Counted from the first letter of the stretch, positions 777 through 34,929 are shown. The stretch is 64,000 nt of DNA from Promethearchaeota archaeon (GCA_016839555.1 JAEOUA010000008.1:160001-224000), one strand, 5' to 3'. Notes: generated from the letters alone by a model not told the origin. Translations and numbers: made by a program.

Positions 777-1772
777 ATGAAGCTCGAAGAAAAAGTTGGA
801 TCTTATTTAGATGATATTAAAAAACTACCAGGAGTGGAGAATGTCGTTCTAACCCAGAGAGACGGAAATCCAATTCATTCTTCAGGAGTATGGCTTAGTA
901 AGGATGAGATCTTTAATGTCTGTTCAGCAGCTAGCGCTATTTATAATGTTGGGATAAAATTACATCCAAAAAATCTAAAATATATTCTCATTGAGGGAAA
1001 GAAAGCAAAGATTCTTATTGTTCCTTTGAATAATCCAGTCCATGAATCGCTAAACAGATATCTTGAACAGTCAGAAGCTAATATCCATGAATTTTTTATA
1101 AGCATAACGGCCCAACCACAAGTAAATTTAGGGAGTATCTTTCTGCAAACAAATAACTGTTTAAGTTCAATTAAAACTACCTTGCTAAATTCAGGGCAAA
1201 CATTTAAACCTCCTCTAATCGAATATGACGAAATTAAATTGCAAGAAATTTTAAATCGATTTAAAATTAAAGACGACGAAGAAGAAAGTTATAATTTTTC
1301 TTCAATTCTTTTTAATATTTCAGAAGAATTATCGTGGGAATTAAATAAAATATTAAAAAACTTTTCAACTTTAGTTTTAGATCTTAACTATGCTTTTTTA
1401 TCTATAGAAGGAGGTTTTATATTATCAAAAATCTTAAAGAATTTAAAATTACCTGATAGAATTATTGACAACATTTCTGCAATGAGTTATTCGCTTTTTC
1501 ACGTAGCAAATAGATGTGCATGGTTATTAAAAAAAATGAATGCTGAAAATATATTATTAGAATGTAATAACACTTTTCACTTTATAAACAAAATCAATGA
1601 AGGTGTTTTTTCTTCTGAAATCAGAAAAGGGCGACAAAAATTGGGTTTAATACGACTTTATTTGCCGCAATTTTTAAAAAAAATCTCTACGGTATTATCA
1701 AGTGTAGAACATGATCAAAAACATGAATCATTTGACGTTAACAAATTTTTAGATAATATGACTATTAAATAA
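777..1772 (+). CDS. Tandem Roadblock/LC7 (MglB-like) domain protein
   Basis: Two Roadblock-like units (PGVENVVLTQRDGNPI..SAASAIY..ILIEG; YAFLSIEGGFI..SAMSYSL..ILLEC..KLGLIRL); upstream of MglA-like GTPase; ATG 777 preferred over TTG 753. Confidence 0.85.
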   Translation: MKLEEKVGSYLDDIKKLPGVENVVLTQRDGNPIHSSGVWLSKDEIFNVCSAASAIYNVGIKLHPKNLKYILIEGKKAKILIVPLNNPVHESLNRYLEQSEANIHEFFISITAQPQVNLGSIFLQTNNCLSSIKTTLLNSGQTFKPPLIEYDEIKLQEILNRFKIKDDEEESYNFSSILFNISEELSWELNKILKNFSTLVLDLNYAFLSIEGGFILSKILKNLKLPDRIIDNISAMSYSLFHVANRCAWLLKKMNAENILLECNNTFHFINKINEGVFSSEIRKGRQKLGLIRLYLPQFLKKISTVLSSVEHDQKHESFDVNKFLDNMTIK

Positions 1773-1870
1773 AATAATAAAATAGAATATTTTTAAAAAA
1801 AAATCAAAATTTTTATTATAGAAAAAAACGAGTATTTCTTATTTTATCGAAATTAAAATTATTAAATACT

Positions 1871-2050
1871 ATGCTGATTGATTCAAAAATAGGTAGCAAA
1901 ACATTGTTAGAAACAATTAAATATAAAGATATCCCTATTGAAAAGATAATATCATTTATCAAAAAAGAGTGGGGGGGAGATTTTTCCAAGTTAATAGAAA
2001 ATGATAAGCTTACTTTAATTGGAAATAAAATACAATCTTTTTTGGGTTAA
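1871..2050 (+). CDS. Small 59-aa hypothetical protein between Roadblock and GTPase genes
   Basis: ATG 1871 to TAA 2050 (MLIDSKIGSKTLLETIKYKDIPIEKIISFIKKEWGG...), ends 4 nt before the GTPase ATG; below ORF-track cutoff. Confidence 0.55.
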   Translation: MLIDSKIGSKTLLETIKYKDIPIEKIISFIKKEWGGDFSKLIENDKLTLIGNKIQSFLG

Positions 2051-2054
2051 AAAT

Positions 2055-2636
2055 ATGATCTTAAATTATGAGTCAAAAACAATTCAAGTTAAAATTGTAT
2101 ATTATGGCCCTGCTATGTCAGGAAAAACTACCTCACTTAAATTTTTATTTAATTACTTTAATAAAGAGGATCAAATAAATTCTATTGAAAATACAGTTGG
2201 AAGAACTTTGTTTTTTGATTTTGGAGTATTAGAATTTAAGGGGTCTCAGTGGGATCTTAAATTTCTTATTTATTCGGCAACTGGACAAGACTTTTATTCT
2301 AGCACAAGACCTACTACGCTAAGAGGAGTTGATGGGATTATATTTGTTGCTGATTCTAAAAGAGAATGCTTAGAGCATAATATTCGCTCTTGGAAAGAAT
2401 TAAAGTATTATTTCGGTGAAAATTTATATCAAATCCCAATTGTAATCGCCTTAAATAAATATGATTTGAATAATGGTAAAAAAATTGAAAAAAATGATTT
2501 AAAGCACAAAATTGATTTTAACAGATTTAGAATGATTAATATGACTAAAACAATTGCTATTACGGGAGAGGGTATTTTAGATTCGTTCAAAAAGTTAATT
2601 AAATCTATCTTTCCAAAAATAAGATTTACTATTTAA
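2055..2636 (+). CDS. mglA: MglA-family small GTPase
   Basis: G1 GPAMSGKTT, MglA signature GRTLFFDF, G3-like ATGQ, G4 NKYD, G5 AITGEG; ATG at 2055. Confidence 0.9.
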   Translation: MILNYESKTIQVKIVYYGPAMSGKTTSLKFLFNYFNKEDQINSIENTVGRTLFFDFGVLEFKGSQWDLKFLIYSATGQDFYSSTRPTTLRGVDGIIFVADSKRECLEHNIRSWKELKYYFGENLYQIPIVIALNKYDLNNGKKIEKNDLKHKIDFNRFRMINMTKTIAITGEGILDSFKKLIKSIFPKIRFTI

Positions 2637-32611: not shown

Positions 32612-32727
32612 ATCTTGAGATAATTCTCAATGTTCAGGTTCAAATTAGAACTAAAAAGAACATGTTTATAAACTTATTTTTAAAAGTTGTTTAGCATTTA
32701 ACAAGTGTTAGGTTAGGTAGTTGCTAG

Positions 32728-33627
32728 TTGAAAGAGGAAAATTTTTGTCCAGAATGTAAGAAAGCTCAATTAATTTATGATGAAAAGACAGCCGAGATAA
32801 TATGTGAATCTTGCGGACTTGTTGTTAAGGAAAGAGTTATTGATCATGGCCCTGAATGGAGAGCCTATAATCGAGAAGAAGAGCAGAGAAGAGCACGTGC
32901 TGGAATGCCAACATCTTTATCAATTTTTGATAAAGATTTGGGTTCAGAAGTGGGTAAGAAAAAATCATTCATGTATAATAGTCAAAAAATAAAACACCTA
33001 AGAAAAGTCAACACCTGGATGAAAAGTCGGAAAGGGACAGATAGAAACTTAAAGAAAGCTTTTGGTTACTTGGATTCTATATGTTCCCAATTCCATCTGC
33101 CAAGATTAATGAAAGAAGGTGCGGCGTTATTATATAGAAAAATCTTGAAGAAAAATCTTGCTAATGGAAGATCAATTAAAATATTCATGGCAACGTCTAT
33201 TTATATAATATGTAGAAAATTTGAGTTTCCAATTAATGTTTCCGATTTAATAGAGTTTTATAATATAACAAATAAATCATTTAGACATTATTACTCTTTA
33301 GTCATTAAAGAATTTCAGATAAAATTACCTCCGATATCTATCTCAAAACTTATCACTAAATATGTCAATAGATTGGAATTTTCTTATGAAGTAGAGCATG
33401 AAGCTTTGAGAATTTATAAAGAATGTAGAGGAAAAGATTTTTTAATTGGAAAGGCTCCAGACAGTATTGCAGCTTCAATTATTTATGTGGCTAGCATTAT
33501 TACTAATGACAGGAGAACACAAGGAATAATTGGAGGAGAATGCAAAACAACAGAAGTGACGTTAAGAAATCTCTCTAAATTAATATTAAAGAATATTTCT
33601 ATAAATAAAATAACCAGCTTTATATGA
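32728..33627 (+). CDS. tfb: Transcription initiation factor B
   Basis: CPEC..CESCG Zn ribbon, DHGPEWRAY B-reader, RAGMP, two cyclin folds, TQ..TEVTLRN HTH. Confidence 0.93.
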   Translation: MKEENFCPECKKAQLIYDEKTAEIICESCGLVVKERVIDHGPEWRAYNREEEQRRARAGMPTSLSIFDKDLGSEVGKKKSFMYNSQKIKHLRKVNTWMKSRKGTDRNLKKAFGYLDSICSQFHLPRLMKEGAALLYRKILKKNLANGRSIKIFMATSIYIICRKFEFPINVSDLIEFYNITNKSFRHYYSLVIKEFQIKLPPISISKLITKYVNRLEFSYEVEHEALRIYKECRGKDFLIGKAPDSIAASIIYVASIITNDRRTQGIIGGECKTTEVTLRNLSKLILKNISINKITSFI

Positions 33628-33927
33628 ACACCAAAATTAAATGCTATTTTTAGGGGACTCTGCATCTGATTTATGCAGACTGTTAATGTTCCTAATTCTT
33701 TCCTTATTTTTCACTATACTTCTAAAAATTGCTACATATTTAAATAATTGTCAACCAGAGAAAAATTTTTTTGTATTCGGCTAACTTTTTGAAAATTAGG
33801 ATTTACTTCCAAACACCCCTCTTATAGAAGAATTTATCGTTCTAATAGATAAATTCTCTAGAAAATACATTTAAATGCCTCAGGTGTTAGTTTAATTTAA
33901 TCTAATTTATCAAGGTGAATTAAATAA

Positions 33928-34929
33928 ATGACGGTTGAGAATACAAATCAATATTTTGAAAATTTTTGTCCTGAATGTGGGGGCAACATTATTTGCAATG
34001 GCTTTGAAAGGGTATGTGAAAAATGTGGATTAGTAATTAATTCAATTTTTCAAATCTCTTCTTATCAATTTGAGGAAAATAAAAAGGATGGCAGTTCGTA
34101 TAAACAGTATGTTGCTTTAGGAAACAGAACTGATTTTGTTGGGGGGCTAGGGTCATACATTGATTATGAAAAATCAAAAAAATTAAAGGATCTTAAAGGA
34201 AATTATCTCTCCCCTAGTGGGCAGAGGTTATTCAATAGATTGAAAAAAAATTTTAGGTTTAGCAAAATTAAAAACCATGAGACAGAATATCGAATATTTA
34301 AGATTCTAAAAAGAGTTGCCATAAATTTAAATTTAACTCTAAATGTAAGAGCGAGTGCGGCACTCTTCTATAAGAAGATTATTAAGAAAGATGATGACGT
34401 AATTAACAATATTACATTAATAGCTTTCTGTATCTTTATGGCATGTAAAAATTTCAAAGCTCCCATCAGTATTAATGAAATCGCAGCGGAATTTAAAAAT
34501 CTTGGACACAGAGTAAATCCAAGGTTAATATTAAGAGATGGTTTAAAATATAAAAAGCATTTAGATAAAACGATTAGACCACCTATAAGTGAAATTTATT
34601 GCTCAAAGTTAGTTAATCAAGTTATTAATCACAAATCTCTTAAACAAAGATTAATACTAAAGAAGAGCCCTTTCCCTTTATTGGAATATCAGGTGGAGTT
34701 GAGGAAAATATGTAAAAAAATATTAGACCATCTTCCATTAATGGAGCGAGGGGGTAGAAATCCCTATATCTTGATGGGAGCCGTAATATATTTAGCTGAT
34801 AAACTATTAGCAAAAAAATATAATTATAAATCAGTTCTAACCCAATCAATAGTAGCAGAGAGTACCGACATTCCAGAATATTCAATAAGAGATCATTATG
34901 TTAATTTGTTAAAACCTCTTTTTAATTAA
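33928..34929 (+). CDS. TFB-like paralogue
   Basis: CPECGG..CEKCGLV, cyclin folds, GRNP..AVIYLA, TQS..IPEYSIRD; no EWR B-reader. Confidence 0.85.
   Translation: MTVENTNQYFENFCPECGGNIICNGFERVCEKCGLVINSIFQISSYQFEENKKDGSSYKQYVALGNRTDFVGGLGSYIDYEKSKKLKDLKGNYLSPSGQRLFNRLKKNFRFSKIKNHETEYRIFKILKRVAINLNLTLNVRASAALFYKKIIKKDDDVINNITLIAFCIFMACKNFKAPISINEIAAEFKNLGHRVNPRLILRDGLKYKKHLDKTIRPPISEIYCSKLVNQVINHKSLKQRLILKKSPFPLLEYQVELRKICKKILDHLPLMERGGRNPYILMGAVIYLADKLLAKKYNYKSVLTQSIVAESTDIPEYSIRDHYVNLLKPLFN

Follow-up and report, generated by a model that had tools for sequence, protein, structure and literature searches.

A relocatable pilus and VirB4-like ATPase module in Lokiarchaeia, a probable machine for cell contact and DNA transfer

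The Ups and Ced systems of Sulfolobales are the described systems that come closest to the locus considered here. They join a type IV filament to a transmembrane (TM) ATPase of VirB4/HerA type, employ no relaxase, and are encoded at separate chromosomal loci, Ced comprising CedA/A1/A2/B/D/E. CedD of Saccharolobus is needed for DNA import and is described with a layout of TM segments, N-terminal domain (NTD) and motor (PMC11868833), and Orc1-2 of Sulfolobus drives tfb3, ups and ced, with Orc1-2 and TFB3 controlling ups/ced (PMC6061795). Here we describe a 12-kb module on an island in the genome of a Loki-type Asgard archaeon of the Lokiarchaeia (Promethearchaeia). The window, meaning the whole 64,000-nucleotide stretch analyzed, spans C7:160,001-224,000 of a 3.74-Mb, 12-contig genome, and coordinates without a contig name are window positions. 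The module ties pilus genes to an 897-aa membrane VirB4-like ATPase and is probably a portable cell-contact and DNA-transfer machine. By analogy, it most plausibly works like Ups and Ced in one relocatable unit.

The likeness extends from the filament and the ATPase, which has the same order of TM segments, NTD and motor, to the lack of a relaxase and to likely regulation by paralogues of Cdc6 and TFB. Unlike in Sulfolobales, both halves lie in one module, no homologue of CedA or CedA1 was identified, the ATPase crosses the membrane ~7 times and includes a domain equivalent to most of the VirB4 NTD, the pilins are short and Flp-like, and MglAB is attached. We do not regard the module as a shown member of Ced. 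It does not qualify as an integrative and conjugative element (ICE), no integrase of the searched families having been found, nor as a Cdc6 replicon. Archaeal relaxases are largely unknown, and archaeal conjugative plasmids (pT33-3, crenarchaeal) share with the module a VirB4-type ATPase, small membrane proteins and no recognizable relaxase (PMC12857230); in contrast to them, the module has no VirB4+VirD4 pair, no plasmid match, the sequencing depth of a chromosome and its own type IV filament machine. In Thermus transjugation an element-borne HerA/FtsK-family pump (TdtA of ICETh1) acts with type IV pili in contact-dependent transfer (PMC5365140, PMC7767461). Whereas TdtA is a soluble protein, the pump of the module is polytopic with a VirB4 NTD. 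ICETh1 encodes an integrase; the element described here supplies a pilus of its own. A recent survey describes Asgard type IV filament loci as rarely ordered and their genes as scattered and of unclear type (PMC13705601). No paper describing the present locus was found in the searched literature, where few subscription journals were covered.

Pilus genes and a VirB4-like membrane ATPase

The module runs in the order prepilin peptidase, 4-TM protein, small membrane protein, pilin, platform, 375-aa protein, 897-aa ATPase, charged protein, second pilin, tadA, 99-aa gene and TrmB (Table 1). Profile matches bear out what an initial annotation of the window had named as Cdc6, prepilin peptidase, VirB11/FlaI-type ATPase, TFBs, TrmB and MglB/MglA, the best NCBIfam model for the TadA ATPase being FlaI (2.6e-33). 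The TadC/FlaJ-like platform named there fits by architecture and position, with 7 TM segments in a two-fold arrangement, a weak internal repeat (E 0.004) and a conserved place in the order, but none of 13 orthologues matched T2SSF; we infer its identity from architecture and position. A separate archaellum-type locus in G055 (L232:5403-10979), with a T2SSF platform, a FlaI-like ATPase and two pilin-like genes, was used as a control. The pilin has a basic leader followed by a G/hydrophobic helix and aligns with native Flp-like pilins.

The ATPase is composed of about 6-7 TM segments, a VirB4-type NTD (residues ~225-490) and an FtsK/HerA motor with a helical insert and a Zn ribbon, and carries Walker A (GKTGSGKT) and Walker B (IEIDEAH) motifs. 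An AlphaFold model (pLDDT 78.7) shows a TM bundle, an alpha/beta middle domain and the FtsK/HerA motor, and full-length TrwK/VirB4 ranked first in a Foldseek search with it. Because HerA and VirB4 cannot be told apart by the motor alone, the middle domain was folded separately (pLDDT 87.3). Its 13 best Foldseek matches were all TrwK (E ~1e-5, TM-score ~0.5), and a wide VIA search aligned 239 residues with the TrwK/VirB4 NTD (Z 11.4, root-mean-square deviation 5.0). Atlas neighbors of the domain, at a TM-score of ~0.7, were DUF8128-DUF87/TrwB proteins, bacterial ATPases associated with type IV secretion systems (T4SS) in Patescibacteria, which have the same motor family behind this domain and are likened by structure alone. 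On the predicted structure the protein is a VirB4-type ATPase and not a repair HerA, because its N-terminus consists of TM segments and an alpha/beta VirB4-type domain; the case that would have refuted the initial annotation, a grouping with repair HerA rather than with transfer ATPases, thus does not hold. It has no HAS barrel and no nurA, mre11 or rad50 neighbors, and the repair-type HerA candidate of the genome, a soluble 506-aa DUF87 protein, is encoded elsewhere, on C1. Sequence matches to TIGR00929 were weak (4 of 28 family members), and the CedD model was matched by 10 of the 28, far below cut-off, so that the protein is regarded as a CedB/CedD analogue and not as a shown orthologue. 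A tblastn search against 72,556 plasmids gave no match.

The partner proteins are less familiar. The 4-TM protein has distant relatives in a number of native pilus loci and next to certain membrane HerA-family ATPases; the family adjoins a CedD-like ATPase in just 5 of 30 loci, and its HHalign comparison with the C5 neighbor was weak. In one genome, a single case, the 375-aa protein is part of a fusion with a DUF87 ATPase, encoded immediately ahead of a TadA homologue (T2SSE ATPase). HHalign of the 375-aa family against the ATPase middle domain was not significant. Atlas searches with both proteins returned nothing above 0.81. Positional equivalents of the charged protein in other modules share a similar C-terminus (..ERESYL).

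Table 1. Features of the module, the window and the surrounding island
Feature	Position	Strand	Remarks
Prepilin peptidase (A24)	18813-19358	+	PF01478 1.5e-11; both Asp motifs present
4-TM protein	19398-20171	+	Conserved in all seven modules; candidate channel
Small membrane protein	20241-20642	-	Acidic tail; accompanies modules
Short Flp-like class III prepilin variant	20781-21026	+	Class III-like leader ERG/LNNII
Putative pilus platform, TadC/ArlJ-like	21039-22625	+	Architecture and position
375-aa soluble protein	22605-23732	-	Divergent from VirB4-like gene; also in native loci
Membrane VirB4-like ATPase, 897 aa	23839-26532	+	
Charged coiled-coil protein	26685-27689	+	Follows ATPase
Leaderless pilin-like protein (second pilin)	27775-28185	+	One N-terminal TM; homologous to gene between native tadA and platform
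TadA/FlaI-type pilus assembly ATPase	28236-30407	+	Cys-rich N-terminus; T2SSE PF00437 3.5e-16
99-aa 3-TM protein	30433-30732	+	Conserved in modules and native loci
TrmB-like winged helix-turn-helix (wHTH)	31340-31573	-	Recent host-gene copy, 88% nt
Two TFB paralogues	32728-34929	+	32728-33627 and 33928-34929; second 65% aa, groups with host native-locus copy
MglB-like Roadblock protein	753-1772	+	Recent copy of host chromosomal gene, 79% aa
Remnant of native 297-aa gene	1773-2018	+	Between mglB and mglA; ~600 nt deleted
MglA-like small GTPase	2019-2636	+	Recent host-gene copy, 81% aa
FG-GAP surface protein (1420 aa) and divergent TFB-like protein (410 aa)	2863-8546	-	Paralogues (72% and 67%) of C11:104.6-109 kb pair
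cdc6, wHTH, NIF3, 120-aa, 101-aa run	12455-15461	-	cdc6 at 14238-15461
wHTH of this run	13973-14251		Profile match
CCGACA box	15750-15755	.	Upstream of cdc6
61-aa open reading frame	16165-16350	+	RHH-like by eye
Stand-alone receiver domain	17729-18103	+	No ATG/GTG/TTG start for full domain
Defence-type cargo	35260-63656	.	SAVED-cyclase fragment, HNH, NERD-type helicase, ABC/SMC-type ATPase, caspase-like protease, CAAX protease
Island, ~89 kb	C7:137,620-226,850	.	Encloses whole window (1-64000)
Left border, tRNA-Gly(TCC)	C7:137,546-137,620		22.4 kb left of window
Right border, decayed tRNA promoter and 5' half	C7:226,824-226,911		2.8 kb right of window

The native pilus locus and the distribution of the module

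The host has a native counterpart of the pilus genes at C5:572-603 kb. Among rpl3, rpl4, rpl23 and other housekeeping genes lie cdc6, wHTH, peptidase, platform, second pilin, tadA, the 375-aa gene, TrmB, short pilin, NIF3, two TFBs and mglB/mglA, in a locus that is single-copy in 24 of 25 good genomes and whose synteny reaches complete genomes of another family. The pilus, cdc6, TFB and MglAB genes of the window are paralogues of this locus. Its families are orthologous to those of the module, but they stand amid housekeeping genes, the pilin has a +5 Glu, and the 897-aa ATPase and its partners are missing. The initial annotation had named vertical, single-copy chromosomal descent as evidence against a transfer element; the outcome is divided, since the same genes also form a near-universal chromosomal locus, of which the window holds paralogues. 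The host's native tadA (L001/L002) is split at an A-run, through a real slip or an assembly error, and because it may be the latter, the break is not counted as a proven loss.

A second native block, at C11:84-123 kb, has paralogues of five of its genes on the island. It includes a 1297-aa pseudo-ATPase present in 100 of 134 genomes of the family, and carries RadA-, Fen1- and Hef-like genes, assigned partly by eye. Of 61 Lokiarchaeia, 49 have a CedD-like TM-DUF87 ATPase. In five genomes its gene is located 6-23 kb away from native tadA, which, like the 375-aa fusion, links the pilus to ATPases of this kind. A 3-TM DUF87 ATPase was seen in two copies (L228:8201-10707 and L229:8740-11272; best model CedD, E 6e-10), each convergent with a small membrane gene; members of this family are named from Thor-, Heimdall-, Hod- and Hermodarchaeota, making it a candidate pan-Asgard CedB/D analogue. 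Small islands with a truncated cdc6, a 4-TM homologue and a CedD-like ATPase, and without pilus genes, were seen in G118 (L157:7005-13500) and G084 (L174:8500-18600).

As the initial annotation had anticipated, the gene set is linked in other genomes, here of Lokiarchaeia. G016, G084, G118 and G148 share the order of the window module, with a total of three host genera, and this lineage is carried by 5 of ~160 genomes. The sites differ wherever flanks were assembled, and in G084 the module lies within 36 kb between smc and its usual neighbor, with no att-like repeat at the insertion. A second lineage with reshuffled order occurs in G128 and in a contig binned as Patescibacteria. This 61-kb contig (JANBVM010000002.1; L138/L153-L156) is a Lokiarchaeia contig placed in a Patescibacteria metagenome-assembled genome by a binning error: it has 28% GC, Loki-like MglAB, TFB, cdc6 and TadA, no terminal repeat, and host-like genes at its end. 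The ATPase family is patchy and was not found in 6 of 6 congeners. The same kit at different chromosomal sites in a few related archaea is therefore probably portable.

Trees (a quick tree for TadA, FastTree for the others) separate the structural core from the host. The window and its four order-sharing modules group at support 100 for both TadA and platform, apart from host copies, module TadA clustering with element copies of other genera; two element clades of TadA are nested within the native genes of the family. In contrast, MglA, MglB, TrmB and the last TFB of the window are sister to host copies, at 72-88% nucleotide identity, which contradicts the initial annotation's notion of private regulators. 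The structural core thus travels as a lineage, whereas its regulators are acquired or renewed from host genes. At 40-50% identity across genera, no core reading frame or Walker motif is broken, implying selection. In G084 a deletion has removed native tadA, second pilin and platform; in G148 a fused remnant is all that is left of native tadA/platform, while G016 and G128 keep both native and module pilus sets; these small numbers suggest that the module can replace the native pilus.

Regulators, island borders and cargo

Cdc6 matches TIGR02928 above cut-off and has intact Walker A/B motifs. The cdc6-wHTH order is that of the pilus-linked chromosomal locus, and the 101-aa gene of the run is common to other elements. 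The protein is 34% identical to the pilus-linked native paralogue and 25-26% to the other two; in the tree it forms a long branch of unsure place. One native cdc6 lies next to polD on C12, and the PolD-gene neighborhood is the usual site of the origin initiator in many archaea. The origin-like DNA reported upstream of the window cdc6 was not recovered: a repeat finder and an origin recognition box (ORB)-like pattern search yielded no ORB and no iteron array, just AT-rich chance pairs and two G/C hairpins, and the 23% GC of the region is ordinary, within the 16-29% of other cdc6 upstream regions. Near the module, cdc6 is found in G016, G118, G128 and the misbinned contig, and it is not adjacent in G084 and G148. 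By analogy with Sulfolobus Orc1-2, a role as regulator would fit this Cdc6 better than a replicon.

A CCGACA box precedes 9 of 16 pilus-clade cdc6 genes and nrdD in 3 of 3 genomes; among all genes of the genome the share is 2.7%, and the relatives compared are not independent. Other module genes were not found to be preceded by the box, which shows no genome-wide enrichment either, so no module regulon is defined. The CCGACAAAA-type box stands before nrdD (L161:2404, 2613), at -86 in two other genomes, and also before an SMC-family operon, a TFB and a PHP-like gene (upstream regions L158, L159 and L160); the set may represent a DNA-metabolism regulon of Lokiarchaeia. Two small regulators of the initial annotation survive in part: the RHH candidate exists as a reading frame but has no Pfam match, and the DivK-like receiver is present as a domain but lacks a start. 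A second copy of the cdc6-operon wHTH lies to the right of the window near the right border (L172:6878-7162, 73% nt identity to the native gene), followed by an N6-methylase fragment and a MarR-like gene with relatives at the element edges of G016 and G084.

The window belongs to an island that overhangs it by ~22 kb on the left and ~3 kb on the right. Housekeeping genes end at tRNA-Gly(TCC), 22 kb left of the window, and none was found among the window reading frames scanned, as the initial annotation had stated. The promoter and 5' half of this tRNA gene recur 89 kb away in the same orientation (90 nt, 76% identity, E 3e-9; the next best match in the genome has E 0.009). The site is empty in the same-genus genomes G004 and G006, and the distance from Nep1 to a radical-SAM gene is 102 kb here versus 1.2 kb in G004. 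The suggestion of an integrated element is thus upheld by the tRNA junction, its decayed far-end duplicate and the empty site. One contig of the probable source run spans the tRNA junction, and contig depth is 8-9 on either side, a second sample being similar; the island is therefore integrated, at chromosome copy. No excision or empty-site joint was seen in the contigs of four runs from one study, contigs being a form in which rare variants drop out. Searches for tyrosine, serine and SSV-type recombinases (PF00589, PF00239, PF16795) found no match on the island or on the other module contigs searched, and only chromosomal XerA in the host genome, although an integrase of an unrecognized family is conceivable; relaxase, oriT and coupling protein were likewise not recognized by Pfam. 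The initial annotation, too, had recognized neither relaxase nor integrase. The island looks like an old insertion that no longer excises, and the present copy is probably no longer self-mobile. In G005, the closest relative, the same tRNA-Gly site carries ~6 kb of other inserted DNA (L177:1400-6800) resembling an IS607/TnpB pair by eye, which points to an insertion hotspot.

The 35 kb that the initial annotation had treated as a single cluster are interrupted at 2.9-12.4 kb by FG-GAP, TPR, LRR and NADAR genes. The C11 counterpart of the FG-GAP/TFB-like pair is part of the separate recombination/envelope block, and the TFB-like protein (7314-8546) gave a profile match for the Zn ribbon only. 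To the right of the module, CBASS-like pieces at 48675-49568, 45069-45821 and 57846-58703 (a SAVED and a cyclase-like domain in one frame, HNH N-termini in two other frames) appear rearranged or decayed. Internal duplications (31781-32611/56722-57585, 35079-35214/56454-56589, 40924-41448/52651-53176) include two CAAX proteases and several 65-80% DNA repeats. The left arm (L003:1-11576; C7:137.8-151.6 kb) holds a second translocase-like unit, with a 1337-aa TM pseudo-ATPase, an M50/zincin-like membrane protein, a soluble 639-aa VirB4-like ATPase and acidic repeat proteins of 296 and 1903 aa; the pseudo-ATPase/ATPase/acidic arrangement recurs without pilus genes in many genomes of the family.

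Proposed mechanism, alternatives and significance

We lean, with moderate confidence, towards pilus-mediated contact combined with relaxase-free DNA translocation by a VirB4-like ring under host-derived control. In this mechanism the peptidase would mature the pilins, and TadA with the putative platform would assemble a pilus that brings cells together. The ATPase, with its VirB4-type fold, would form a membrane-anchored ring whose pore may be provided by its own TM segments and/or the 4-TM protein. Like Ced in Sulfolobales, this ring would need no relaxase to pass DNA from one cell to another in contact with it. The Cdc6 paralogue, wHTH, TFBs, TrmB and MglAB, mostly copies from the host pilus locus, may switch on and place the machine, acting as Orc1-2 and TFB3 do for Ups/Ced. 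The module, found at different sites and in two genomes with loss of native pilus genes, would relocate between chromosomal sites and lineages and could substitute for those genes. Several observations weigh against this scheme. No CedA/VirB6 or VirB2/CedA1 homologue was identified, and the 4-TM protein has neither a family nor an atlas match. The pilin fits class III, as initially annotated, in its leader but not at the +5 Glu, which native pilins keep (DExG/GSxxEY). Taken by itself, the motor domain matches DndH, anti-phage HerA, repair HerA and VirB4 about equally well (Z 26-29), and a subunit of ESX-3 (type VII secretion) comes second among the VIA matches of the middle domain (Z 10.0). 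Relatives of the ATPase are also encoded where pilus genes are absent, a number of island genes have decayed, and the module tree (g1,(g6,g11)) roughly mirrors the host genera, which would also fit old inheritance with many losses.

The motor tie and the type VII-like match make protein secretion conceivable: the module could be a contact-dependent secretion or adhesion device whose ATPase exports proteins, e.g. the giant acidic or FG-GAP proteins, instead of DNA. T4SS that secrete effectors are likewise driven by VirB4, in most loci the ATPase is followed by charged or acidic proteins, and the module contains neither nuclease nor relaxase. We nevertheless consider this unlikely, as the nearest structural neighbors carry DUF87/TrwB domains, the island has copied genes from the block with RadA-, Fen1- and Hef-like genes, and the tested archaeal TM-VirB4/HerA proteins of the same layout import DNA (PMC11868833). 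A different explanation concerns the history of the locus, namely an old paralogous chromosomal locus, inherited vertically and mostly lost, with the island as a decaying dump of duplicates without a role in transfer. The branching order of the module tree is compatible with it, as are the host-derived regulators, the mglB-mglA deletion and the lost receiver start. The different chromosomal sites, the few carriers of the first lineage, the acquisition of the same gene set by two separate element clades and the selection implied by the intact core make it improbable.

Quite improbable, too, is the initial annotation's view in its strongest form, namely that of a conjugative plasmid or ICE which is autonomous through a Cdc6 replicon of its own. 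It would accommodate the tRNA-linked island with its defence cargo and the presence of cdc6 near several modules, and archaeal conjugative plasmids also have no recognizable relaxases (PMC12857230). Against it stand the chromosomal depth, the junction-bridging contig and the missing excision joint in contigs of one study, the lack of ORB or iterons and of the searched recombinases, the att-like copy with just 76% identity, the missing VirB4+VirD4 pair, and the misbinned contig with its host-like end and no terminal repeat. The polD-adjacent cdc6 on C12 and the modules without adjacent cdc6 in G084 and G148 likewise contradict a replicon. A broader version of the favored contact-and-transfer mechanism, which we regard as doubtful, is a lineage-wide programme of contact and DNA exchange controlled by the Cdc6 paralogue, TFBs and MglAB, to which self-spreading islands that displace host pilus genes are added. 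The programme would comprise the native pilus locus, the CedD-like ATPase and the recombination block, and the islands would contribute the variant pilin and the VirB4-like pump.

For the biology of the Lokiarchaeia, these results point to an ordered pilus locus conserved across the lineage, including complete genomes of the order, and relocatable modules that tie a pilus to a VirB4-type pump. The co-mobilized genes (Cdc6 paralogue, wHTH, TFBs, TrmB, NIF3, MglAB and the pseudo-ATPase block) outline one host programme, and together with the promoter box they provide named targets for study in cultured Lokiarchaeia under DNA damage. If the lineage-wide programme were real, the closest relatives of eukaryotes would possess an exchangeable mating module. 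With the module, contact-based exchange of genes near the root of the eukaryotes gains a candidate mechanism.

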